This document shows, piece by piece, positions 25,163 to 48,747 of a stretch of 64,000 bases of DNA. Numbering within the stretch: position 1 is the stretch's first letter; each line of letters starts with the position of its first letter. The notes under the pieces were generated by a model. That model was not told where the DNA came from. It did not search any database and saw only the letters and a list, made by a program, of their open reading frames with translations. The translations under genes and the position numbers were made by a program. The DNA lies in the IMG/VR virus record IMGVR_UViG_3300045976_000096, positions 48,423-112,422 of that record; one strand, given 5' to 3'. The stretch comes from a virus.

Positions 25163-25178
25163 TGTTTCACGTGAAACA
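25163..25178. other. parS: parS site (chromosomal ParB/Spo0J consensus)
   Basis: Perfect TGTTTCACGTGAAACA palindrome, intergenic. Confidence 0.88.
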
Positions 25179-27436: not shown

Positions 27437-27673
27437 GCCAGCCGCATAGCCACATCAAGGGCGCCGACCGGGCGCCCTTTATATTGCGCCACCCAGTTGC
27501 CAAGGAAGCGCCTGTCACTGCGCTGCAGGAACACCATGCGAGCACGCCTTGGCAACGCCAGCCGCGGCGAAGGTATTCCGTGGACGTTCCGCTTTCAACG
27601 CCAGCTGCGGCGACGTCATATGCAGGATTTGTCGCGCCGCCCTCGCGCCTTGGCATGCCGGTCGCGACAGAGG

Positions 27674-27883
27674 ATGATTCACATGCGAACCATTCACATG
27701 CTAATAGTTCGTAACCTAACCATTTGCGTGCTAATGATTCGCATACACATAGTTCGCATACGAACCATTCACATGCTAATGATTCGTATGCTAATCGTTC
27801 ACATGCTAATCGTTCGCGTGCTAATGATTCGTATGCTAATCGTTCGCATGTGAACAGTTGACGTATCAACAGTTGAATACGCA
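27674..27883. repeat. 15-bp tandem array (12 clear + 2 degenerate units)
   Basis: Units such as atgattcgtatgcta, atcgttcacatgcta, accattcacatgcta at exact 15-bp period. Confidence 0.92.
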
Positions 27884-28231
27884 AGTAACCCGAATCGGGT
27901 TTAGCTCACCTGTGACTGACCTTGTCAATAGGTCATTGACCAATGCACAAACAAATTTCTTGCGCAAGCTGTGCATTTGTACAGTAAAAACCACTCTTGT
28001 ATAAGACATGGTCAAACTGACAATTTTAACGCTTGTAAGTCATTGATTTTAAAGCGAACCCTCTAGGTTCAACGAACAGACAGGTCCCGGTATGGTTCTA
28101 TCAACAAAGGGAAAAACCTCACCACGGGCTTAAAAAGGGCATTTGCGGGCATATATTTTTGCGTGATGTTTTTGTGCGTCTACATGACATCAGAATCTAA
28201 TTTCACGCATAAAAAAAATCACGCAAAAGTA

Positions 28232-28260
28232 TTGACCTGGCAATTTTCGATCTGTATAGT
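28232..28260 (+). promoter_or_regulatory. strong sigma70-type promoter with A-rich UP element
   Basis: TTGACC-17bp-TATAGT, A8 tract upstream. Confidence 0.8.
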
Positions 28261-28410
28261 TCTATTCATGCACTGACGAACACAACGATTCGCAGCGCTG
28301 CGCAAGCAAGTGGTTACATAACCCGCGCGCCCGGTACTGTGGTTCGCTCTCGCAGATACTGACCGGGCAAACAAAATACTCTTTCACAACATTATATAAA
28401 GGTAACTATC

Positions 28411-29097
28411 ATGGGTAAGCAATTGAAAGCTGCAACTATCGTTAACAAACTGGGCGCAGCAGTCGCACAGCGCGTGCAAGCGCTGAAAGACAACGAGACG
28501 CACGTCGCGACCGAGTTTAAGGGCATCTTAGCGTGCTACGCGCCCGACGGTAACAATCGCGGTTCGTTCGAGCGTGCAATCGAAAGCGTGAAAGATCAGA
28601 TCGATTTTGACTTCTTAATCAAGATCATCGGTAAGCACGCAGAAACGGGCAAGAACGACCCGAACTATGTGCAAGCAAAAACGATTGTGAAAATCAATCG
28701 CTTGCTATTCGGTCTCGCAACGAAAGACATGCGCGCGCTCGACAACCATTCGCGCTCGTTGATCGTGAATGCAACGCTGAATGGTAAGCTCTCTAGCAAA
28801 GCAGCGTTCGCAACGCTGGTACGTGTTCAATGGGGGGAAGAGATCGAAGAAGCGCTGCGCGAGCGTAACAACTACAGCGCGGGTACGGGTTCGACGCAAC
28901 TCTCTAGCACAAAAGAAATGATGCGCGTTTTGGGATTAAGCGACAACCCGAAGGGCACGAAAAACGCAGACTTCGCTTTCACCGACGAAGCTCGTACGCT
29001 ACTGTGCGAACGGTTCGCGCGTCTCGCAGAACTGGTCAAGACCGCTGACAAGATCGATGCAGAGCTTGACGCAGCAATCGAAGAAGCAGCAGAGTAA
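28411..29097 (+). CDS. hypothetical protein, probable immediate-early gene (paralog of 15361 C-domain)
   Basis: AAAGGT RBS; NYSAGTGSTQLSS motif; atypical codon usage. Confidence 0.85.
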   Translation: MGKQLKAATIVNKLGAAVAQRVQALKDNETHVATEFKGILACYAPDGNNRGSFERAIESVKDQIDFDFLIKIIGKHAETGKNDPNYVQAKTIVKINRLLFGLATKDMRALDNHSRSLIVNATLNGKLSSKAAFATLVRVQWGEEIEEALRERNNYSAGTGSTQLSSTKEMMRVLGLSDNPKGTKNADFAFTDEARTLLCERFARLAELVKTADKIDAELDAAIEEAAE

Positions 29098-29100
29098 ATC

Positions 29101-29130
29101 ACAAGGGCGCACTACGGTGCGCCCTTGTTT
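29101..29130 (+). terminator. hairpin/terminator overlapping parS
   Basis: acaagggcgcac-tacg-gtgcgcccttgt-tt. Confidence 0.75.
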
Positions 29131-29141
29131 CACGTGAAACA
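29126..29141. other. parS: parS site (second perfect copy)
   Basis: TGTTTCACGTGAAACA. Confidence 0.88.
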
Positions 29142-29156
29142 CACAAGGGAAACATC

Positions 29157-29330
29157 ATGCACAAGATCGAAGAATACGACGAGCAAAGCGACGAATTCAC
29201 GGTGCGCGCACCTGACGGGACGCGTTATTTCGCTAACGCAGAAACACTCGCGCATATGCTGAATCATTACGACGAACCGAGCGCGTTTCTTGGTATGCAG
29301 TTCACTACAACCATTAAGGTGCAAGCATGA
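29157..29330 (+). CDS. hypothetical protein (57 aa)
   Basis: AAGGGA RBS; MHKIEEYDEQ...IKVQA; below ORF-track cutoff. Confidence 0.65.
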   Translation: MHKIEEYDEQSDEFTVRAPDGTRYFANAETLAHMLNHYDEPSAFLGMQFTTTIKVQA

Positions 29331-29593
29331 AAAGCGAATATCTGAAACAGCAGCGCGCGACGCGCAACGACGAGATCACGCTGTGCGTCGTCGCGCTGCT
29401 GTGTGTCGTGCTGTGCATGGGCGTGCTGATTAACGCAGCAATTGAGAGTGAACAGCGCGCAGCGCAGCGCGCGAGCGACGCACGGTTAGCGCGTACGGGT
29501 TCGCGCTTATGCTTGCAAGACGGTCGCACGATTGACCAAATGCGGTTTGACGAACCCGTACGCGCGATGTCTGCGCGTTGGTGCAAACGTTAA
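29327..29593 (+). CDS. small membrane protein
   Basis: ITLCVVALLCVVLCMGVLI TM segment. Confidence 0.7.
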   Translation: MKSEYLKQQRATRNDEITLCVVALLCVVLCMGVLINAAIESEQRAAQRASDARLARTGSRLCLQDGRTIDQMRFDEPVRAMSARWCKR

Positions 29594-29603
29594 GGGGAAA
29601 GAC

Positions 29604-29831
29604 ATGACTGACTTAGAAAAAGCAATGCAAGAGTTCGCAGCGCGTAACGGTGTGACGCAATGCGCACCCGTCACGAGCGCGAAGCAAGCAAACGAGCTTG
29701 CGAAAGCGCGACGCGTCGAACAGCGCGAACGCGAACGTGCAGAACGCGCTGCGCGCTGCGCAGAACAGAACGCAGAGAACGCGCGCTATGATCGCGAAGG
29801 TGTGTGGTACGTGGGCGGGTTCGCATCGTAG
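29604..29831 (+). CDS. hypothetical protein
   Basis: AAGGGG RBS; hairpin at 29848-29875 downstream. Confidence 0.7.
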   Translation: MTDLEKAMQEFAARNGVTQCAPVTSAKQANELAKARRVEQRERERAERAARCAEQNAENARYDREGVWYVGGFAS

Positions 29832-30051
29832 CACATACGCAACAGTAGCACGCACCGCTTGACACGGTGCGTGCGATATGCGATGTCTTAGAAAAATTTT
29901 CAACCCGAGGAGGCCCTGCCTTCCTCGACTTCCGGTCTCCGAACACCCTTCCTTACAGAATCCTGGGCGGCCGCAAAAGCCAATCCTTATACATCCAAGA
30001 TCCAAACATCCACGATCCAGGATTCCACATTTCCCCACTTATCCCCGCAAT

Positions 30052-32756: not shown

Positions 32757-34496
32757 CTACGCGGCCGTCATCAAGACGGGAAAGCCCAGCGCCGCCAGGT
32801 CCACATCGCGCCCGTGCTCGTGGATGAAGCGGTCGAACCCGGCAGTCTCCTTGATGATGCTCTGGCGCTGCTTGGCGTGCAGTTTCAGATGGTCGTTAAA
32901 GTCGTCGGCGAAGTCGGTCACGAAACACAGGTTCGGCCCCTTCTTTTTCGCCCGCAGGCCGCGCCCGATGCGCTGCCTGAGCGCCACCTCGGCCTTGCCG
33001 CCGCCGGCCAGGCAGACATGGCCCACGGCCGGCACGTCCACGCCCACGTCGAGGATCGTGGTGCCGATCAGGACGTCGATGTCGCCGGCGGCCAGGCGCG
33101 CAAGCGCGCGCTTCCGCTCGTCCTGGTCGTTCTCGCCGCGGATGAAGCACACGCGCAGGCCGGCCGCGCGCATGGCGGCTTCCAGCACGTCGCCATGCTT
33201 GGTCTGCTGGATCAGAACCATCGAGGTCAGGCCGTGGCGCGCGAACATGCTGCAGCGGTCCACGATGATGTCGTTGCGGTATTCGTTCTCGACGATGCCG
33301 ATCCGGTACGCGCTCTGCCAGCCGGTGCCGCGAAACAGCTTGGCCGGCTTGTGGCGCAGCTGGATGAAGGTGAAGTGCGGCTGCGCCAGGATGCCGCGGT
33401 CGATCAGCATTTCCTCGCTGATCTTGATGGCGATCGGGCCGGAGCACGCCATCAGGCGCATGTTCGATTCCTGGTCGCCCTTCATGAACGGCGTGCCGGT
33501 CAGCGCCAGGCGGTAATAGGCGTTCTTGCAGTGTTTCAGGATCTGGTAGTAGCTCTCGCCCGACGCCTCGTGCGCTTCTTCGAGAATCACGAGACCGAAA
33601 CGCTCCAGCAGGGCAATTACGCGCGCGCGCTCGCGCATATGTTCGTTCACCTTCACCGCGGCATCGGCGCGCAGGCTGGCCGCGATCTTCTTGCGCTCGA
33701 TTTCCTGGTTTTGCTCGAATTCCTTGAGCAGGCGACGCTTTTCCGCCGGCGGCGTGCGCAATAAACCGAGCTTCGTCTCGTATTCCTTGTAGTCCTTGAG
33801 TTCTTTCTTGACGCGCGCGTCCATCATTTTTTCGAGTTCGCCCTCGACGGTCTTCTCCTCGACGCGCGCGGCGAGCGTCTGCACCATGCCGACGCAGATT
33901 TTGCGCACCGCGCGCCCGCCGCCCGCCGTCTCGTGCCCGAACTGGCCGTCGCCCAGCACGGAGCAGGCGGTGCCCATTTCCTCGAACGCGTCCTTCATCT
34001 GGTACATCAGGATGCCGCGCGTGGTCAGGAACAGGGTCGGCAGGTTGATCGAAGCGTAGGCCATGCGCGCGATGCGGCTCTTGCCGCCGCCAGTGGCCAC
34101 GCGCGCGATGATCTGGCCGTGCTTGCGCAACTGCTTGACCACCTCCGGCTGGTAGTCGTAGCGCGGATCGTAGCCGAACGAGTCGATGTCGGGACGCTCC
34201 GGCCCCTGCGGCTCGGGCAGGGGGCGCTTGACGTGGCGCACCTGATAGCCTTGCGCGCGCAGCTTGGCCGAGACGTAATGCACGAAGCCGGCCGGGAAGG
34301 TGCCGGCGCGAAAGTCCAGGAACGAGCTGCGGCCATCCCAGTTGCCCTTCTTGAAGGACATGACGTGCTCGGCGCCGGCAACCGCGTACGAGAGAATCTC
34401 CTGGACCGCCAGCTTGACCACCCGGTCGGGGTCGTGCAACTTGGCGATGACGGCGTTACTGGCGATTGTGATTGTAAGGCTCATTGCGCTTGCCAT
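32757..34496 (-). CDS. superfamily 2 (DExH-type) helicase
   Basis: ATGGGKS, ILEEAH, LTGTP, GVDVP, QRIGRGLR motifs. Confidence 0.93.
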   Translation of the reverse strand: MASAMSLTITIASNAVIAKLHDPDRVVKLAVQEILSYAVAGAEHVMSFKKGNWDGRSSFLDFRAGTFPAGFVHYVSAKLRAQGYQVRHVKRPLPEPQGPERPDIDSFGYDPRYDYQPEVVKQLRKHGQIIARVATGGGKSRIARMAYASINLPTLFLTTRGILMYQMKDAFEEMGTACSVLGDGQFGHETAGGGRAVRKICVGMVQTLAARVEEKTVEGELEKMMDARVKKELKDYKEYETKLGLLRTPPAEKRRLLKEFEQNQEIERKKIAASLRADAAVKVNEHMRERARVIALLERFGLVILEEAHEASGESYYQILKHCKNAYYRLALTGTPFMKGDQESNMRLMACSGPIAIKISEEMLIDRGILAQPHFTFIQLRHKPAKLFRGTGWQSAYRIGIVENEYRNDIIVDRCSMFARHGLTSMVLIQQTKHGDVLEAAMRAAGLRVCFIRGENDQDERKRALARLAAGDIDVLIGTTILDVGVDVPAVGHVCLAGGGKAEVALRQRIGRGLRAKKKGPNLCFVTDFADDFNDHLKLHAKQRQSIIKETAGFDRFIHEHGRDVDLAALGFPVLMTAA

Positions 34497-34555: not shown

Positions 34556-35206
34556 ATGCCCACCACTCTCCTGCAGGACATCGACCCCCGGCTGCTGCAG
34601 CCGAACCCCTGGAACACGAACGTCGTGTCGCCTGACAACGAAGCCAAGATCGACGCCTCGGTCAAGCGTCTCGGCATGTTCAAACCCATCATCGTGCGCA
34701 CCCTCCCTGACGGCACCCTGCAAATTCTCGGCGGCGCGCACCGGCGCGATTCCGCGATCCGCCTGCACATGACCACCGTCCCGGTGATCAACCTCGGCAT
34801 CATCGACGACAAGAAAGCCAAGGAAGTCGGTATCGTCGACAACGGCCGCTACGGCGAAGACGACACGCTGGGCCTGGCCGAATTGCTGGAATCGCTGGGT
34901 TCGCCCGGCGAGCTGGCCGAATTCATGCCGTTCACGAACGCGGATTTCGAGTCGATCTTCGCTTCAAGCAATATAGCACTCGACGAGCTGGATTTGCCCG
35001 ACGAATCCGGTTCGCCGGCACCGTCGCCTGCAACCAAGCCTGCCCAGACCCACGTCGTCATGCGCTTCAAGGTGCCACTGGGCGACGACGGCATGATCGC
35101 CGACGCCATCGCGCAGGTGCAGAAGCAGCAGGGCTTCACCGACGAGGACGCGCTGTCCAACGCCGGCAACGCCCTGGTCCACATCTTCAAGAGGGCGGGG
35201 TACTGA
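34556..35206 (+). CDS. ParB/Srx N-terminal domain protein
   Basis: PNPWNTN...G...PIIVR...ILGGAHR. Confidence 0.88.
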   Translation: MPTTLLQDIDPRLLQPNPWNTNVVSPDNEAKIDASVKRLGMFKPIIVRTLPDGTLQILGGAHRRDSAIRLHMTTVPVINLGIIDDKKAKEVGIVDNGRYGEDDTLGLAELLESLGSPGELAEFMPFTNADFESIFASSNIALDELDLPDESGSPAPSPATKPAQTHVVMRFKVPLGDDGMIADAIAQVQKQQGFTDEDALSNAGNALVHIFKRAGY

Positions 35207-35207
35207 C

Positions 35208-35375
35208 ATGCCCAAGGCCCGCTTTGAATTCTGTGACGCCTGCGTCAACAGCGAAATTCCCTACGAGTGCGTGACCTGCAAGGACGGCAGCAAGTTCGAG
35301 GCGGCCGACGCCGTCGAGGAGCTGACCGTCCACGAGCTGCGCATGATGACCATCCCCACCGAAGACGACGAATAA
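35208..35375 (+). CDS. small Cys-rich protein
   Basis: CDAC...CVTC. Confidence 0.6.
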   Translation: MPKARFEFCDACVNSEIPYECVTCKDGSKFEAADAVEELTVHELRMMTIPTEDDE

Positions 35376-35674
35376 TGGACAACCAACACAGAAAAATTCG
35401 TGGCTACCGCGAGCTGTCGCAGGCTGAAATCGACCTGATGAACAAGATCAAGGAACAAGGCCTGGCCCTGGCAGCGCTGATCACCGAGGTCCAGCTGCAC
35501 CACAAGGCCCAGCGCGCGGCGTGCACCCAGACGCCGACTGCCGCCGGCGACGAGCAAGAGCAGGAGCGCCTGCGCCTGGCCGAGCCGGAGCGCTGGGCCT
35601 CGATTGGCCGCACCCACTTCCAGGAAGGTCTGATGGCCTTGACGCGCAGCGTGGCGCAGCCGGGGTTCTTCTGA
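35375..35674 (+). CDS. acb2: Acb2-family anti-CBASS cyclic-nucleotide sponge
   Basis: MDNQHRKIRGYRELSQAEIDLMNKIKE...AEPERWASIGRTHFQEGLMALTRSVAQP, recognisable Acb2 pattern. Confidence 0.88.
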   Translation: MDNQHRKIRGYRELSQAEIDLMNKIKEQGLALAALITEVQLHHKAQRAACTQTPTAAGDEQEQERLRLAEPERWASIGRTHFQEGLMALTRSVAQPGFF

Positions 35675-35792
35675 TGACGCCCGCTGACGTATTCGTCTGG
35701 ACCTGCACGATCACGACATGCTGCCTGGTTGTCGGGGCCGGCGTGGGCCTGCTGGCGCTTGGCTTTAACGCGCTCGAAAAGGAGATTTTCAA

Positions 35793-35975
35793 ATGATCGC
35801 CTGGTGGATTCTACCGCTGGCCATCAGCGTGTCCTGCCTGCTTACGATCGCCTGGTGGTGTGACGAGAACATGCCCTACCGCAGCCTGATGGCGGCCGTC
35901 GCAGTATTCCTCGCCATCGTGCCGAACGCCATCGTCTGGGTGTTTGCCTTCCTGATTTCCCGAATGATGCCATGA
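35793..35975 (+). CDS. small two-TM membrane protein
   Basis: Hydrophobic; AAGGAG RBS. Confidence 0.6.
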   Translation: MIAWWILPLAISVSCLLTIAWWCDENMPYRSLMAAVAVFLAIVPNAIVWVFAFLISRMMP

Positions 35976-36619
35976 CCGACCACAACATCCAGATGTGGGA
36001 CACCTCCCGTCCCAAACCCTACGCGCTGAACGCCAAGATTCACGACGACGCGCAGGTGACGAAGATCGCCGCCTCGATCCAGAAGTTCGGTTGGCGCGGC
36101 AATCCCATCGTCGTCGACGAGAACGAGGTGATCCTGGCCGGCCACGGCCGCCGCCTGGCCGCCCTGAAGCTGGGCCTGAAGCAGGTGCCGGTGGTCCAGA
36201 TGAAGGACATGACCGAGGACGAGAAGCGCGCGTATCGTCTGGCCGACAACCGCGTCGCCATCTCGAACCTGGACGCCGACATCCTGGCTCAGGAAATCGA
36301 GGGCCTGGACTTCGACCTGAACGAGTTCTTCGACGCCAAGGAAATCAGCTTCGTCACCGCCGACCTCGGCACCCTGAACGAAAGCGCCTTCGTGGCCGAC
36401 CTGGACGCGGAAATCGACGCCCAGAGCGCCGAGACGACGGCAACGATCGCCGCGGCCGCCGACAAGCCGGTGCCGGTCGCCAAGGCGCTCGGCTTCAAGA
36501 CCATCAAGGGGGCCGACGAACGGGCCGTGGCGCGCTTCATGGCCACGATCGAGGCCGACACCGGCAAGACCGGCGTCGACGCCTTCATGGCCTTCGTACG
36601 TAGCGTGGTGGGCAAATGA
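35972..36619 (+). CDS. ParB/Srx N-terminal domain protein (phage methylase-associated type)
   Basis: PYALNAKIH...SIQKFGW...PIVVD...ILAGHGR..AA...YRLADNR. Confidence 0.9.
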   Translation: MTDHNIQMWDTSRPKPYALNAKIHDDAQVTKIAASIQKFGWRGNPIVVDENEVILAGHGRRLAALKLGLKQVPVVQMKDMTEDEKRAYRLADNRVAISNLDADILAQEIEGLDFDLNEFFDAKEISFVTADLGTLNESAFVADLDAEIDAQSAETTATIAAAADKPVPVAKALGFKTIKGADERAVARFMATIEADTGKTGVDAFMAFVRSVVGK

Positions 36620-36777
36620 GGGACGACGTCTGCTTCTGGATTGCCCGCCATCTGCCGCGGCGCCTGGTGTACTGGTGCGCGGTGCGTCTGATGGCGCATG
36701 GCGCCGCCGCCAACCCGACCCGCGAAGTGCCGGCGATGACCGGCATCGACTACCTGATGGCTTGGAGGAAGCGATGA
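36616..36777 (+). CDS. hypothetical small protein
   Basis: WIARHLPRRLVYWC; coupled both ends. Confidence 0.6.
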   Translation: MRDDVCFWIARHLPRRLVYWCAVRLMAHGAAANPTREVPAMTGIDYLMAWRKR

Positions 36778-36956
36778 CCGAGCTGAAACGCGGCCGCCTG
36801 ACCATCAGGGGCAACCAGACCACGAAGGGCTTCGGCTGCCACTGCAGTGGCCCGGCCTACGGCACCGAGTTCTGCCTGTGCGAACTGGCCCGGATGCAGG
36901 CCGAGCAGGAGGAGCGCGGTGACGATGACGACGATTACGAGGATCGCAAGAAATGA
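36774..36956 (+). CDS. small Cys-rich protein
   Basis: CHCSGP...CLC. Confidence 0.55.
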   Translation: MTELKRGRLTIRGNQTTKGFGCHCSGPAYGTEFCLCELARMQAEQEERGDDDDDYEDRKK

Positions 36957-37609
36957 CCACTTTTACCATCGACAAGCGCTTCCACACGACCGTGGAGCGC
37001 ACCGACCGCGTGCTGGAAATCGCCGAAGCGTTCGGCCTGGGCCTGGACGACAAGGAATTCGTCGTGTTCGACCAGCAGCCGATCGACATCGAGCAGGGTG
37101 ACGTCGTCTACGTGACGGGCCAGTCGGGCGCCGGCAAATCCACCGTGCTGCGCGAGCTGGCGGCCCAGATGCAGGCCGCCGGCCTGGCCGTGACCGACAT
37201 CGACGCCATCCCGCTGCTGGACAAGCCGCTGATCGACCAGATCGGCAAGACCACCCAGGAGGCGCTGAACTTCCTGTCGATCGCCGGCCTGAATGACGCC
37301 TACCTGTTCATCAGGAAGCCGGCCGAGCTGTCCGACGGCCAGCGCTACCGCTTCCGCCTGGCCAAGCTGATCGAGTCGGGCGCGCGCGTCTGGGTCGCCG
37401 ACGAGTTCCTGGCCGTGCTCGACCGCACCACCGCCAAGGTGATCGCGTTCAACCTGCAAAAGACCGCGAGAAAGACCGGCGCCACCCTGATCGTGGCCAC
37501 CACCCACACCGACATGGTCGACGACCTGGCGCCCAACCTTTACGTGGAGAAGCGTTACAGGGAAAAGATCCAGATCATTCGCGCGCCAGAGGGCATGAAG
37601 AATGTCTAA
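36953..37609 (+). CDS. soluble ABC-type ATPase
   Basis: GQSGAGKS, LSDGQRYR signature, VADEF, ATTH; no permease nearby. Confidence 0.9.
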   Translation: MTTFTIDKRFHTTVERTDRVLEIAEAFGLGLDDKEFVVFDQQPIDIEQGDVVYVTGQSGAGKSTVLRELAAQMQAAGLAVTDIDAIPLLDKPLIDQIGKTTQEALNFLSIAGLNDAYLFIRKPAELSDGQRYRFRLAKLIESGARVWVADEFLAVLDRTTAKVIAFNLQKTARKTGATLIVATTHTDMVDDLAPNLYVEKRYREKIQIIRAPEGMKNV

Positions 37610-38159
37610 GGCGGGCATCTACCGGATCAGCAACCGCGAGAACGGCAAGTTCTATGTCGGCAGCGCGGTCAACCTGGAAAAGCGGTTCTACCTGCACCGC
37701 AACCAGCTCGACCTCGGCAAGCACCGGAACAGCCACCTGCAGCGCGCCTGGGACAAGCACGGCGCCGACGCCTTCGACTTTACGGTCCTGCAGTACGTCG
37801 AGGACAAGACGCAGCTGGTGGCGATCGAGCAGAACTGGATCGACACCCTGCGCGCTACCGAGCTCGGCTACAACATCTGCAAGGTGGCTAACAGCCGCCT
37901 GGGTGTGAAGGCCAGCGACGAGACCAAGGCGCGCATGTCGGCGGCAATGGCCGGGAAGACGCACACCGAAGAGACCCGAAAGAAAATGTCGGCCGCCAAG
38001 GCCGGCGTACCGAAACCACCACGATCGGCTGAGCATCGCGAAAAGCTCGGCGCCGTCCACCGCGGCAAGATCGTGTCCGAAGAAACGCGCGCAAAGCTGC
38101 GCGCCGCGCGAGCTGCACGCGAAGCACGTCGCGCACCCGAAGGAATGAAGAATGCATAA
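37602..38159 (+). CDS. GIY-YIG homing endonuclease with NUMOD3 repeats
   Basis: GIYRISN...YVGSA; H.EETRKKMS repeats. Confidence 0.9.
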   Translation: MSKAGIYRISNRENGKFYVGSAVNLEKRFYLHRNQLDLGKHRNSHLQRAWDKHGADAFDFTVLQYVEDKTQLVAIEQNWIDTLRATELGYNICKVANSRLGVKASDETKARMSAAMAGKTHTEETRKKMSAAKAGVPKPPRSAEHREKLGAVHRGKIVSEETRAKLRAARAAREARRAPEGMKNA

Positions 38160-38472
38160 CACCCACAACACCGCCTTTTTCGACGACGTGCTGAAGGCAT
38201 CCTACGCCGCGCCGGTCGTGGTCATGTTCCACGCCAGCTGGTGCGGCCCGTGCCGCGGCATGAAGCCGCTGGTCGAGGCCATGGCGGCCGAACTGGGCTT
38301 CACCCTGGTCGGCGTTGACGCCGGCGAGCAGCGCGACCTGGCTGCCATGGAAGGCGTGCGCGGCGTGCCGACCATCATCGTCTACAGAAACGCGGTCGCG
38401 GTCGGTCAGCCCTCGGTCGGCGGCAAGACCGAAGCCCAGCTGCGCAGCTTCCTGGCTGCGGCGGGGGTATGA
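38152..38472 (+). CDS. thioredoxin
   Basis: WCGPC active site, GVPT cis-Pro loop. Confidence 0.92.
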   Translation: MHNTHNTAFFDDVLKASYAAPVVVMFHASWCGPCRGMKPLVEAMAAELGFTLVGVDAGEQRDLAAMEGVRGVPTIIVYRNAVAVGQPSVGGKTEAQLRSFLAAAGV

Positions 38473-38530
38473 CCATGTTCCATACGCTCGCACACAAGCA
38501 GACCCGCCCGGTCGACACCAAGGAGAAGAA

Positions 38531-38884
38531 ATGACCGCCGACAATTTCGTCCACTGGCTGCAGGGCTTTTTCGACTGCATGGACGGCAAGCCGCTGCTGC
38601 CGGCCGACGTGGCCAAGATCCAGATGAAGATGGCCGAGATCGACAGCAAGCCGAGCCAGCACGTCAGCTTCCCGCCCGGTATCCGCGGCCTGGGCACCGG
38701 CGGGCCGGTCGCCACCGACCTGCTGTACCGGGGCGGCACCGTCGGCGTACCGTTCTCCACCTCGCGCGCACACCCGACCGACCCGAACATCGCCCTGTGC
38801 AGCTCCGGCGTCAGCGGCAGCCTGGTCGCCGCCGGCACGCTGGACGCATCCGCCGTGACCGCCTCGCGCGAGGTGGCGCAATGA
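38531..38884 (+). CDS. hypothetical protein
   Basis: MTADNFVHWLQGFF; AAGGAG RBS. Confidence 0.65.
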   Translation: MTADNFVHWLQGFFDCMDGKPLLPADVAKIQMKMAEIDSKPSQHVSFPPGIRGLGTGGPVATDLLYRGGTVGVPFSTSRAHPTDPNIALCSSGVSGSLVAAGTLDASAVTASREVAQ

Positions 38885-38992
38885 GCTGGATGGCCATCCT
38901 GATGATCATCTTCGGCGGAGGCAAGAAGTGAATACCGGCCTTCTAATTTTGGTGATTTTAGCAATCATGATCTGGTTTTTGAGGGGTCGCAA

Positions 38993-39970
38993 ATGACGAC
39001 CATCATCGACAACGCGGACGTGCGCATCGTGCGCCGCGCCATGCCTGCCAACCACACGCTGTCGCTTCTGGACCGCATCTACGTCGAGCGCGGCACCAAG
39101 GCGGACTGGGATCTGCTGCACGAGCTGCACTACAAGGCCGAGCGTCTCGGGATCGGCCCGAAAATCTACCGCTGCGTGCTCGATGGCCAGGTGATCGGCG
39201 TGGGTGTGATGACGGTGCCGAAAATGCTGCTTTCGGGCCGCAACGAGGCCATGCCGCACATGCGTCCCAACGTGGACGGGCGCGACACGCGCCTGATCAA
39301 CCGCACACGCGCGCTGTGGCTCAACGCGCACGCCTGCACCAACAGCCGCCTGGTGCTGGACACGATGTACCGCGGCGCCGGCATCGCGTACCGCATGCAG
39401 AACCTCATGATGCGCATGACCGGCTGCCGCTACGTCGAATTCCAGTCGTCGATGAGCAAATTCAACCCGTTCGCGGCGAAGGCCGGCATGCGCTTCACGA
39501 AACCCAAGCGCAGCTCCAACTACGAGAAGGGCCTGGCCTTTTTCCAGCGCTGGTTCGAGAGCGTGCCGATGGATTATGTCGGCATCAAGGCGGAAATCGA
39601 CGCCATGCCGCCGGCGGTACAGACAAAGTGCATCGCCGAGATGCGCAAGTTCTACTACACCTGCTCGTCGATGGAGAAATCCGGCGACAACCGCGCCAAT
39701 GGCACCACGCGCGTCGACGCGATGGCGGTCGGCTACCTCTTGAAAAGCCTGCAGCAGCTCGTGCTGGCCAGTCCGCTGTACGGGATTTTCGAGAACCCCG
39801 ATTTCTGCCACCCGCTGCCAGCGCGCCTGCCGCTGGTCGCGTTCGACAATCAATCCCTCGGGTCGCCACTCGATTTGGAAGCCGCCTACGTGCAAATGGG
39901 CCGCATTCCGGTCGTCGACGACCTGACCAACCCGGAAGACGAAGATGCACCTGACAGCCAAGCAGATTGA
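38993..39970 (+). CDS. GNAT-fold (Mom-like) acyltransferase, putative DNA modification enzyme
   Basis: LHELHYK, SRLVLDTMYRGAGIA acyl-CoA motif A, MSKFNPFAAKAGM. Confidence 0.7.
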   Translation: MTTIIDNADVRIVRRAMPANHTLSLLDRIYVERGTKADWDLLHELHYKAERLGIGPKIYRCVLDGQVIGVGVMTVPKMLLSGRNEAMPHMRPNVDGRDTRLINRTRALWLNAHACTNSRLVLDTMYRGAGIAYRMQNLMMRMTGCRYVEFQSSMSKFNPFAAKAGMRFTKPKRSSNYEKGLAFFQRWFESVPMDYVGIKAEIDAMPPAVQTKCIAEMRKFYYTCSSMEKSGDNRANGTTRVDAMAVGYLLKSLQQLVLASPLYGIFENPDFCHPLPARLPLVAFDNQSLGSPLDLEAAYVQMGRIPVVDDLTNPEDEDAPDSQAD

Positions 39971-40265
39971 ACTTTTGCGCGTGATCGGCGCCGGCGGGCC
40001 GGATGGTTCGTGCGACCTGGACGAAATTCTCGCCAACGTGCGCTACCAGACCACCAAGGCCAGCCTGCAGTTCTCGATCCGCGCGCTGGTCAACCACGGC
40101 CTGATCGAAAAGCTGGCGGTCGAGAAGCGCCGCGGGCGCCAGCGCCGGCCGATCGGCCTGACGGAAATGGGTCGCGCACTGGCCGGCACCGGCAAGAAGT
40201 CCGAAGCCGCGGTGTTGGTCGCGCCCGAGGATGACTTTCTGGACGAAATCATCGAGTTGTCATAA
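39945..40265 (+). CDS. winged-helix DNA-binding protein
   Basis: LTAKQIELL...SLQFSIRALVNHGLIEK...RGR...LTEMG. Confidence 0.75.
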   Translation: MHLTAKQIELLRVIGAGGPDGSCDLDEILANVRYQTTKASLQFSIRALVNHGLIEKLAVEKRRGRQRRPIGLTEMGRALAGTGKKSEAAVLVAPEDDFLDEIIELS

Positions 40266-40762: not shown

Positions 40763-41410
40763 GTGACAGCAGCACCGAAGACCACGAAACACCGCCTGTC
40801 CGCGAAGCAGTGGGCCGAGGCGGAAGCGCTCTGGGAGAGCGGCACCGTCACGTACGAAGACCTGATGAAGAAGTTCGGCCTGGCCCAGTCCAGCTTCGAG
40901 CGCCACTTCAAGAAGACCGGCACGGTCAAGGGTGCGCGCGCCGCCGCCATCAAGGCGAAGGTCGACGAGAAGCTGGCTACGGCCGCGATCGACGAAGCCA
41001 CCGTCATCGCCGCCCGCATCAAGGAGACCAAGGAGCAGCACTACACGATGTCGGCCAACCTGTCCAAGCTGGCCTACGCGGAAATCCTGCAGGCGAAGAA
41101 GGACGGGCACCCGGTCGCGGTGGCGCTAAACAACCTGAAAGCCCTCGACAAGGCGATGGACGTGCTGGCCAAGGGTCGCGCCGAGCGTTACGCGATCCTC
41201 GGTCTGGACCGCCCGGACGCCGTCAACCCGGACGAGCTGCCGGAACTGGTCATTTCCGAACTGACCGCGGAGCAGATCGAGGAGCTGCGCAAACGCGACG
41301 AGGCGGACCTGGACGAGGTGCCGACCGGCGCCAACCAGAACGCGGTGCAGGCGGACGAGGTCGATGACGACCTCGAGGACGACGGCGACGCCGTGGTCGA
41401 GGAGTCCTGA
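40763..41410 (+). CDS. terS: putative terminase small subunit
   Basis: N-terminal HTH, directly upstream of and coupled to terL. Confidence 0.7.
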   Translation: MTAAPKTTKHRLSAKQWAEAEALWESGTVTYEDLMKKFGLAQSSFERHFKKTGTVKGARAAAIKAKVDEKLATAAIDEATVIAARIKETKEQHYTMSANLSKLAYAEILQAKKDGHPVAVALNNLKALDKAMDVLAKGRAERYAILGLDRPDAVNPDELPELVISELTAEQIEELRKRDEADLDEVPTGANQNAVQADEVDDDLEDDGDAVVEES

Positions 41411-42675
41411 TGGCCGGCAAGGCGTCGCTCAAGCTGCACCCGAAGCAGATGATGGTGTACCGCTGCGAGAAGCGCTTTCGCGTGGTGGTCGCCGGTCGCC
41501 GCTGGGGCAAAACGGCGCTGTCGCGCGTCCTGATTATCACCCGCGCCAGGAAACGCAAGAGCAAAATCTGGTACGTCGCGCCGACCTACAAGATGGCCAA
41601 GCAGATCATGTGGAACGATCTGCTGGAAGCCGTGCCAAAGCGCTGGATCAGGAAGGTCAACGAGACGCGCCTGGAAATCACCCTCGTCAACGGCACCATC
41701 ATCGAGCTGAAAGGCGCCGACAAGGGCGACTCGCTGCGCGGCGTGGGCGTGGACTTCCTGGTGCTGGACGAATTCCAGGACATCGACCCCGAGACCTGGA
41801 CCAAGGTCTTGCGTCCGACCCTGGCCGACCGCCAGGGTCACGCGATCTTCATCGGCACGCCCAAGGCCTACAACTACCTGTACACGCTGTACCAGTACGG
41901 CCAGCGCGGCGACATCTACCTCGACGAGAACGGCCGCGAGCGCAAGAACCAGTGGGCGTCGTGGCAGTTTCCGACCATGACCTCGCCCTTCATTCCGCTG
42001 TCGGAAATCGAGGCGGCCAAGCAGGACATGGACGAGAAATCGTTCAACCAGGAGTTCAACGCCTCCTTCGAGACCATGAGCGGCCGGGTCTACTACCCGT
42101 TCGACCGCATGGAGCACGTCGGCAGCTACCCGTTCAATCCAAAGCTGCCGATCTGGGTCGGCATGGACTTCAACATCGACCCGATGTCCACCGTGATCTA
42201 CCAGCCGCAGAAGAACGGCGAGCTGTGGGCGGTGGATGAAATCGTGCTGTTTTCGTCCAACACCGAGGAAATCTGCGAGGAGCTGGAAAAGCGCTACTGG
42301 CGCCATCTGGTCCAGATCGTGATGTATCCCGACCCCGCCGGCGGCCAGCGCCAGCACGCGCGCGGCGAGACCGACCTCGATATCCTGCGCGAGAAAGGCT
42401 TCAAGCGCATCAAGTACCGCAAGAAGCACCCGGCCGTGGCCGACCGCGTCAACGCCGTGAACCGCATGCTGAAAGCGGCCGACGGCACCATCCGGCTGCG
42501 CGTGGACGAGAAGTGCAAGCATTTCATCAACGCCCTGGAGCAGACCATCTACAAGCCAGGCTCGCGCGACGTCGACAAGACCGGCGGCACCGAACACAGC
42601 GCCGACGCCGGCGGTTACTGCATCGAGCTGGAATTCCCGGTGCGTAAGGTGGAAATCGGCGGCATGTCGCGATAG
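41410..42675 (+). CDS. terL: terminase large subunit
   Basis: AGRRWGKT, LRG...LVLDE, GTPK, GMDFN, H.ADA motifs. Confidence 0.95.
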   Translation: MAGKASLKLHPKQMMVYRCEKRFRVVVAGRRWGKTALSRVLIITRARKRKSKIWYVAPTYKMAKQIMWNDLLEAVPKRWIRKVNETRLEITLVNGTIIELKGADKGDSLRGVGVDFLVLDEFQDIDPETWTKVLRPTLADRQGHAIFIGTPKAYNYLYTLYQYGQRGDIYLDENGRERKNQWASWQFPTMTSPFIPLSEIEAAKQDMDEKSFNQEFNASFETMSGRVYYPFDRMEHVGSYPFNPKLPIWVGMDFNIDPMSTVIYQPQKNGELWAVDEIVLFSSNTEEICEELEKRYWRHLVQIVMYPDPAGGQRQHARGETDLDILREKGFKRIKYRKKHPAVADRVNAVNRMLKAADGTIRLRVDEKCKHFINALEQTIYKPGSRDVDKTGGTEHSADAGGYCIELEFPVRKVEIGGMSR

Positions 42676-48413: not shown

Positions 48414-48747
48414 GACCTGCCGCATCCAGCTCGCCTCGGGCAAGAACGACGTGTTCGGCCAGCCGATTCCCGGCCCGTTCGTGACCGAGCGCTGCGCCAT
48501 CGTCAAGCTGGAAGTGTCGAATGAAAAATCCAGCGTGCGCGCCGATTCGTCAGCCACACGCGGCAACGCGATCGAGGAGGAGGTCACGTCGGTGATCCTT
48601 CTGGCCCCGACCACGCGCGCCAACAAGAACGACATCATCGACGTGGCGGGCGTCAAGCTGCGCGTCGTCTTCAAGCACCCGCGCTTCGACGTCGGCGGCC
48701 GTCTGGACCACTACGAGGTGCGCGCAACCATGTGGAGTCAAGAATGA
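48397..48747 (+). CDS. head closure (stopper) protein
   Basis: Position, size, DVFGQP...HYEV. Confidence 0.65.
   Translation: MFKPNKTCRIQLASGKNDVFGQPIPGPFVTERCAIVKLEVSNEKSSVRADSSATRGNAIEEEVTSVILLAPTTRANKNDIIDVAGVKLRVVFKHPRFDVGGRLDHYEVRATMWSQE

Follow-up and report, generated by a model that had tools for sequence, protein, structure and literature searches.

What could two ParB-like genes, an ABC ATPase gene and a gene for a GNAT-fold protein be doing together beside the packaging genes of a virus? The question is raised by IMG/VR virus record IMGVR_UViG_3300045976_000096, a contig of 112,422 bp that is complete by CheckV. We analyzed its right 64 kb (64,000 nucleotides, record positions 48,423 to 112,422), hereafter the window, to which all coordinates refer unless another record is named. 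An earlier note on this DNA had described a cluster at 34556-39970, comprising two ParB genes, a permease-less ABC ATPase, a thioredoxin and a Mom-like GNAT, as lying directly upstream of the terminase genes terS and terL, and had proposed it as the candidate writer of a DNA mark. All five genes are borne out, at the positions stated. The large terminase gene of the window (terL; 41410..42675, + strand) encodes a protein 60-62% identical to the annotated TerL of Salmonella phage SSU5, Rhizobium phage RHEph10 and Pseudomonas phage nickie, and records of Herbaspirillum, Duganella, Undibacterium and Polaromonas supply the close homologues of the proteins in the cluster. On these grounds the source is assigned, by sequence, to the SSU5-like phages or phage-plasmids, with a host that is probably a member of the Burkholderiales. 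The region is the front of the late DNA-packaging operon of this SSU5-like phage-plasmid. When the 5.4-kb cluster was compared with GenBank phages by megablast no match was obtained, and its relatives were found at the protein level.

The ABC ATPase and GNAT genes and their fused relatives

The GNAT gene (38993..39970, + strand) encodes a protein of 325 aa, P0001, that has no match in Pfam or NCBIfam, and a sequence search against the PDB returned nothing useful. We therefore turn to its predicted structure: an AlphaFold2 model built from a 54-sequence alignment (mean predicted local distance difference test, pLDDT, of 92) consists of a GNAT alpha/beta domain, formed by residues ~27-170 and 262-270, and a helical insertion at residues 175-258. 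This model matches many GNATs with a Foldseek probability of 1.0 and VIA-align Z scores of 10-11.3 over 125-168 aligned residues. P0001 also carries SRLVLDTMYRGAGIA, the classical acyl-CoA pyrophosphate-binding motif A (R127-G-A-G130), in which R127 never varies across the 54 homologues and G128 and G130 rarely do; H46, Y47, R83, R119 and E149 are the other invariant positions of the alignment, and it is exactly at motif A that the family profile matches acetyltransferase chains in the PDB. The model thus confirms the GNAT fold that had been proposed, and P0001 is best described as a member of the GNAT superfamily and a putative acyl-CoA transferase.

The label Mom-like finds no support at the level of the family. 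Phage Mu Mom (PF25680; PDB 8bv8) is a GNAT-fold enzyme that modifies DNA, making N6-carbamoylmethyl-adenine, and it resembles P0001 in its fold, in being a phage gene product and in giving the longest structural alignment (168 residues). The score of that alignment (Z of 10.7) is, however, only level with those of generic GNATs. At the sequence level there is no relation: P0001 has no match to PF25680 at E<=5, whereas Mu Mom itself scores 253 bits, and hhalign of the P0001 family profile against Mu Mom gives a probability of 0.7%. Nor is Mom partnered by an ABC ATPase or a ParB protein, and P0001 differs from it in keeping the classical acyl-CoA motif A. On this evidence P0001 is not a member of the Mom family.

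A clearer relationship emerged from an exhaustive HMMER search with P0001, which yielded 347 representatives. Outside the close family, most homologues are proteins of 450-500 aa with an N-terminal ABC_tran domain and a C-terminal GNAT domain, and residues ~18-170 of P0001 align to residues ~230-390 of these fused proteins. The soluble ABC ATPase of the window (36953..37609, + strand; PF00005) shares 46% identity, across 201 aa, with residues 17-217 of the fused protein P0163. Because the fused proteins are homologous to the GNAT in their C-terminal half and to the ABC ATPase in their N-terminal half, the two genes are, as judged by homology, the two halves of a COG2401/MK0520-type ABC ATPase-acetyltransferase. 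The same invariant residues recur in the split and fused forms (HY, the GRN Arg, SR, RGxG, E, M and F), and both forms are found in viral contexts beside packaging genes. There are two differences: the COG2401 type is a single polypeptide, whereas here two genes encode it, separated by 1.4 kb in which a homing endonuclease gene, a thioredoxin gene and a further open reading frame (ORF) have been inserted, and a pair of ParB-like genes is found with the split form in every case. The cultured relatives Cyrano (OV696614) and nickie (NC_042091) likewise have separate ABC and GNAT genes, which are adjacent or overlapping, by 4 bp in the case of Cyrano.

The ATPase motifs are intact, with the Walker A sequence GQSGAGKST, the signature LSDGQ, the Walker B sequence VWVADEF and the H-loop TTHT. 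As had been noted before, the ATPase is permease-less: no permease or membrane-protein gene is coupled to it among its neighbors in the window. Since, in addition, the GNAT domain is its fused partner in relatives, we rejected the idea that it is a transporter subunit. Among the more distant ABC-GNAT homologues, P0173, P0174, P0196 and P0164 carry further domains, namely a family-B DNA polymerase fusion (two cases), an intein or a TFIIB repeat; the single intein is LAGLIDADG-bearing and lies within the ABC domain. We found no characterization of COG2401/MK0520 proteins, or of the ABC-GNAT proteins of archaeal proviruses, in the literature.

Conservation of the core beside the terminase

Relatives of the locus were collected in two sets. 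In the first, comprising 77 IMG/VR loci anchored on the first ParB-like gene (ParB-A), the order helicase / ParB-A, ParB-B, ABC, GNAT, terL is found wherever the contig reaches far enough. In the second, anchored on terL and limited to loci whose sequence extends 7 kb or more upstream of it, the same order is present in 51 of 51 loci, and Cyrano and nickie keep it as well. The left border of the module is formed in all 51 by a divergent gene for a UvsW-like superfamily 2 helicase (32757..34496, - strand, in the window; PF04851, PF00271 and PF21241). The ABC ATPase is the most highly conserved of the proteins across the family (57-87% identity to that of the window), followed by the GNAT (42-84%), ParB-A (41-81%) and ParB-B (39-73%). 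The core of the system is thus ParB-A, ParB-B, the ABC ATPase and the GNAT. When cultured phages were searched with the GNAT half of a fused protein, only the same 31 SSU5-like records were recovered, and no independent cultured family.

The fused form of the enzyme is common in archaeal genomes (Bathyarchaeia and Nitrososphaeria), with at least 436 confirmed matches. We compared 80 of these loci (L081-L160; e.g. L102:6535-7890) by clustering their neighboring ORFs, and in 42 of the 80 a large terminase gene (PF03237+PF17289) lies directly upstream of the fused gene on the same strand, with HK97-type capsid and Mu-type portal genes also nearby. The enzyme is therefore a neighbor of the terminase in two very distant virus groups, the SSU5-like family and these archaeal tailed-virus-like proviruses, and no other evidence places it as strongly at the packaging stage as this linkage does. 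As a separate observation, two genes encoding proteins of ~131 and ~87 aa are conserved upstream in the archaeal proviruses.

Candidate substrates of the ABC-GNAT pair

Systems that combine a GNAT with an ABC ATPase have been predicted to acylate a DNA base, in a passage of PMC7824862 that cites Iyer et al. 2013, and the link previously drawn between these two families and phage DNA modification has support in print to that extent. The module described here is a member of this predicted class. The new DNA base acylation proposed for it has remained a prediction for more than ten years; the system is now seen to be invariably present, as a core, in a large family of phage-plasmids, and to be linked with the terminase in viruses of bacteria and archaea alike. 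Several members of the SSU5-like family, among them phages of E. coli, Salmonella, Klebsiella, Pseudomonas, Rhizobium and Stenotrophomonas, are in culture, and the case is for this reason worth a test at the bench.

We tentatively propose, with somewhat less than even confidence, that the ABC-GNAT pair is an ATP-dependent acylase of phage DNA that acts at the packaging stage. In such a mechanism, ATP-driven dimerization of the ABC domains would clamp the enzyme onto its substrate and the GNAT domain would move an acyl group from acyl-CoA to that substrate. This would most probably be phage DNA, where the exocyclic amine of a base could be acylated at or just before packaging. By analogy with other phage DNA-modifying enzymes, we infer that the ParB-like proteins may be NTP-dependent DNA-loading or regulatory partners.

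ParB-A (34556..35206, + strand) is recognized by PF02195 (32.2 bits, above the cut-off) and by phrog_723 (E=1e-58); ParB-B (35972..36619, + strand) matches phrog_930 (E=1.2e-73) and phrog_498 (E=9.5e-36) and scores 19.4 bits with PF02195, which is below the cut-off. Both have a ParB N-domain with the GxxR box, in the case of ParB-B by virtue of phrog_930, and both keep the boxes of the ParB NTP pocket: NPWNTN, GGxHRxxxA and DNxRYG in ParB-A, and GHGRR and aDNr in ParB-B. The AlphaFold2 model of ParB-A (pLDDT of 80) consists of a ParB/Srx N-domain, a disordered acidic linker and a C-terminal strand with two helices, which may form a ribbon-helix-helix-like unit. The N-domain of ParB-B is most like those of phage ParB-methyltransferase fusions, the group represented by phrog_498. 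Such fusions have been documented (PMC12704722), and a subclass of phage thymine dioxygenases (5mYOX) requires a ParB-like partner (2025 preprint, bioRxiv 10.1101/2025.08.14.668559). What these systems share with the window is an orphan protein of the ParB-CTPase fold whose gene adjoins, or is fused to, that of a phage DNA-modifying enzyme (in the window a candidate one); they differ in that the partner here is an ABC+GNAT pair and that the ParBs are two paralogues.

That the substrate is DNA is further supported by the family-B DNA polymerase fusions of the distant homologues, by the ParB-like genes that directly adjoin the gene for the fused protein at two of the archaeal loci, and by the lack of any other recognizable DNA-modifying enzyme in the genome. 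A further point of comparison is offered by TmcA and NAT10, the ATP-dependent RNA cytidine N4-acetyltransferases, in which a P-loop ATPase is likewise coupled to a GNAT that acylates the amine of a nucleobase. Foldseek lists both 2zpa and NAT10 for P0001, with poor alignments (template-modelling score of 0.28 and root-mean-square deviation of 14), and these enzymes differ from the present pair in that their ATPase is of the helicase type rather than ABC and their substrate is RNA.

Several points weigh against DNA acylation. Our searches of the literature turned up no experiment on any member of the module, nor any account of modified DNA in SSU5, Cyrano, nickie, RHEph10 or any other SSU5-like phage. 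GNATs mostly acylate proteins or small molecules, and the structural matches of P0001 are generic GNATs. The ABC domain resembles the transporter-type nucleotide-binding domains of CcmA, FtsE and LolD and not the Rad50/SMC/UvrA/MutS clades, and ParB-like genes are found near the archaeal fused enzyme in just 4 of the 80 loci, including the two in which they are adjacent to it. Finally, a role in morphogenesis would explain the strict conservation of the core with the terminase no less well than one in modification.

The main rival, which we regard as rather unlikely, is that the ABC-GNAT pair acylates a protein late in infection, either a packaging or virion protein (terminase, portal or capsid) or a protein of the host, with the ParB-like proteins and the winged-helix protein encoded downstream serving pac-site recognition and packaging initiation alongside TerS. 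In its favor are the invariant co-inheritance with terS and terL in the family and the adjacency to terL in the archaeal proviruses; the best structural matches of P0001 include the protein N-acetyltransferases RimI, Ard1 and NatA, and the transporter-type ABC domain counts for it as well. What tells against it are the polymerase fusions and the kinship of ParB-B, both of which point to DNA, and no protein acetyltransferase coupled to an ABC ATPase is known to us from the assembly of any phage.

The GG/CC-word desert, cargo genes and flanking features

The cluster had also been put forward as the best candidate to modify HGGM/KCCD sites, in a system that would include a leader segment free of these words and borders dense in them. 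This segment, which lies outside the cluster itself, is real: positions 27671 to 29908 contain 1 HGGM/KCCD word against ~178 expected from the genome-wide frequency. The words are purged from both strands, HGGG, HGGT and GGGN occur inside the desert at normal frequency, and no second gap of this kind exists in the 112-kb genome. Most relatives have a desert of 0.6-2.3 kb located 3-7 kb upstream of the helicase, but the banned words differ by lineage, so that at least five 'dialects' can be told apart. The desert may lack HGGM only (the window and many others), all GG/CC words but CGGT, all but WGGT, all but HGGA, MGGB together with GGGD (the enteric SSU5/Cyrano group), or every GG/CC; the core common to these sets is MGGC/GCCK. 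In nickie, a segment of 1,137 bp (103937-105074) is without any GG or CC, compared with 132 per kb elsewhere, and in Cyrano the desert is found at about 99.8-100.7 kb.

If the cluster wrote a mark on HGGM/KCCD words throughout the genome, the 2.2-kb desert could be explained as a segment kept free of these words so as to stay unmarked. In its more general form, this proposal holds that a packaging-stage ATP-dependent DNA acyltransferase marks GG/CC words throughout the genomes of SSU5-like phages and that each lineage keeps a single regulator cassette, 0.7-2.3 kb in size, free of exactly the words of its own enzyme; enzyme and sequence 'blind spot' would then be a single heritable system. We consider the specific proposal improbable, and the general one no less so. 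In its favor, the desert is sharp and unique within the genome and recurs upstream in most relatives with lineage-specific words, and the word ban is kept across hosts of very different GC content, which suggests a reader borne by the phage. No desert is seen in the first 50 kb of T5, a phage that also lacks the cluster. In the whole 112-kb genome, moreover, there is no recognizable TGT/DpdA, QueC, or N6/N4, C5 or Dam-type methyltransferase, and the ParB-ABC-GNAT cluster is for this reason the only recognizable candidate writer, which agrees with its previous designation as the best candidate modifier in the window.

Other results count against this proposal or do not discriminate, and none of the tests linked the cluster to HGGM words. 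Whether the avoided words track GNAT phylogeny had been suggested as a check, and they do not: the distance between word sets correlates weakly with the divergence of every protein compared (Spearman coefficients of 0.36 for ParB-B, 0.28 for the GNAT, 0.26 for the helicase, 0.25 for ParB-A, 0.18 for TerL and 0.17 for the ABC ATPase). Word sets switch between close relatives, differing between L014 and L028 despite 95% identity in TerL and 84% in the GNAT, and identical sets turn up in lineages with GNATs of 41% identity. In one relative (G002) the cluster is intact but the desert is eroded, and in another (G001) the desert is weak. Around the gene for the fused enzyme in archaeal proviruses, no desert lies closer than 8 kb. 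Phage CAjan, in which DNA modification at GA/GGC is experimentally known, has no desert for these words, and the idea of a zone free of the phage's own mark is therefore without a checked precedent. The co-occurrence of cluster and desert cannot discriminate between explanations since both are near-universal in the family. A nuclease or other reader, from host or phage, acting on the DNA that is first to enter or first to be expressed would account for the desert equally well. Nick-associated motifs (PMC11780129) were set aside because they concern an unrelated phage group. Whatever its origin, the presence of a GG/CC-word-free segment in the same family means that the acylation prediction now has a concrete read-out.

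The main gene of the desert (28411-29097) encodes a protein of 228 aa for which the PHROG matches are all without an assigned function. This protein belongs to no Pfam family and has no similarity to the product of the nickie desert gene, gp019; its structural leads, which are all weak, are to winged helix-turn-helix-like and MarR/MukE-like proteins.

The operon also contains genes outside the core. On the + strand between 34556 and 42675 the order is ParB-A, a 55-aa ORF, an Acb2/Tad1-like gene, small ORFs, ParB-B, small ORFs, the ABC ATPase, a GIY-YIG/NUMOD3 gene, a thioredoxin, an ORF of ~118 aa, P0001, a winged-helix gene, a 340-bp intergenic region, a probable terS and then terL, which is followed by a portal gene. 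The thioredoxin (38152..38472, + strand; PF00085, E=7e-20) is found in roughly half of the ParB-A-anchored loci and was rejected as a core member, so that of the cluster first proposed as a unit it is the ParB, ABC and GNAT genes beside the packaging genes that are conserved together. The homing endonuclease (GIY-YIG + NUMOD3; 37602..38159, + strand; PF01541 and PF07460) is shared among these loci by the window and L028 only, and the Acb2/Tad1-like gene by only a few relatives. Given this patchy presence, we consider these three genes, together with the small ORFs, to be cargo inserted into the operon. The ORF of ~118 aa (38531-38884, approximate start, + strand), which starts MTADNFVHWLQGFFD and lies between the thioredoxin and GNAT genes, has no family match.

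The Acb2/Tad1-like hairpin-domain protein (35267..35674, + strand, start codon uncertain), encoded between the two ParB genes, scores 62.6 bits with PF24729 against a cut-off of 27 (E=3.8e-17) and is predicted to belong to the family of anti-CBASS/Thoeris sponges. Its position inside the operon, and the gathering of variable cargo there, could be taken to mean that the locus is a counter-defense island in which the ABC-GNAT pair inactivates an immune component or signal of the host alongside this sponge; some GNAT enzymes are indeed toxins or host-takeover factors (PMC7824862). We think this very unlikely, because the sponge gene is absent from most relatives and the module also lies within structural modules of archaeal proviruses. 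Counter-defense genes are usually variable, whereas the four core genes are present in every one of the 51 terL-anchored relatives, with an ABC ATPase as strongly conserved as described above.

Between the GNAT gene and the terminase genes lies a gene for a small winged-helix protein (39945..40265, + strand), which has weak matches to PF13463 and PF18622 and is conserved 3' of the GNAT gene; in Cyrano its position is occupied by a gene annotated as 'DNA binding domain'. The probable small terminase gene (terS; 40763..41410, + strand) is named from its position directly 5' of terL, and although its product has no Pfam match, its counterparts in Cyrano and nickie are annotated as small terminase or DNA-binding proteins. 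The cluster is therefore near the packaging genes, as had been claimed, but not directly upstream of them, since the winged-helix gene and the 340-bp intergenic region intervene; both of these, like the Acb2/Tad1-like and GIY-YIG/NUMOD3 genes, were left out of the earlier description.

That the two ParB genes are simply the partition genes of a phage-plasmid, unrelated to the ABC and GNAT genes, is hardly credible: although two perfect parS sites lie nearby and ParB-A and ParB-B are the only ParB_N proteins of the 112-kb genome, they match the partition model TIGR00180 over its N-terminal half only (positions 8-98 of 186, with scores of 35.7 and 22 bits where the cut-off is 58.45) and lack its parS-binding helix-turn-helix, on which basis they were rejected as canonical partition proteins, and they have no ParA gene beside them, are co-oriented with the packaging genes in a fixed order in all relatives, and have counterparts adjoining the fused enzyme in the two archaeal loci mentioned above. 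The parS sites themselves (TGTTTCACGTGAAACA), which are of the chromosomal type, are located at 25163-25178 and 29126-29141, where none would be expected by chance, and the second falls within the desert. As the genome has no canonical ParB with a helix-turn-helix, their presence suggests that a host ParB is recruited to them.

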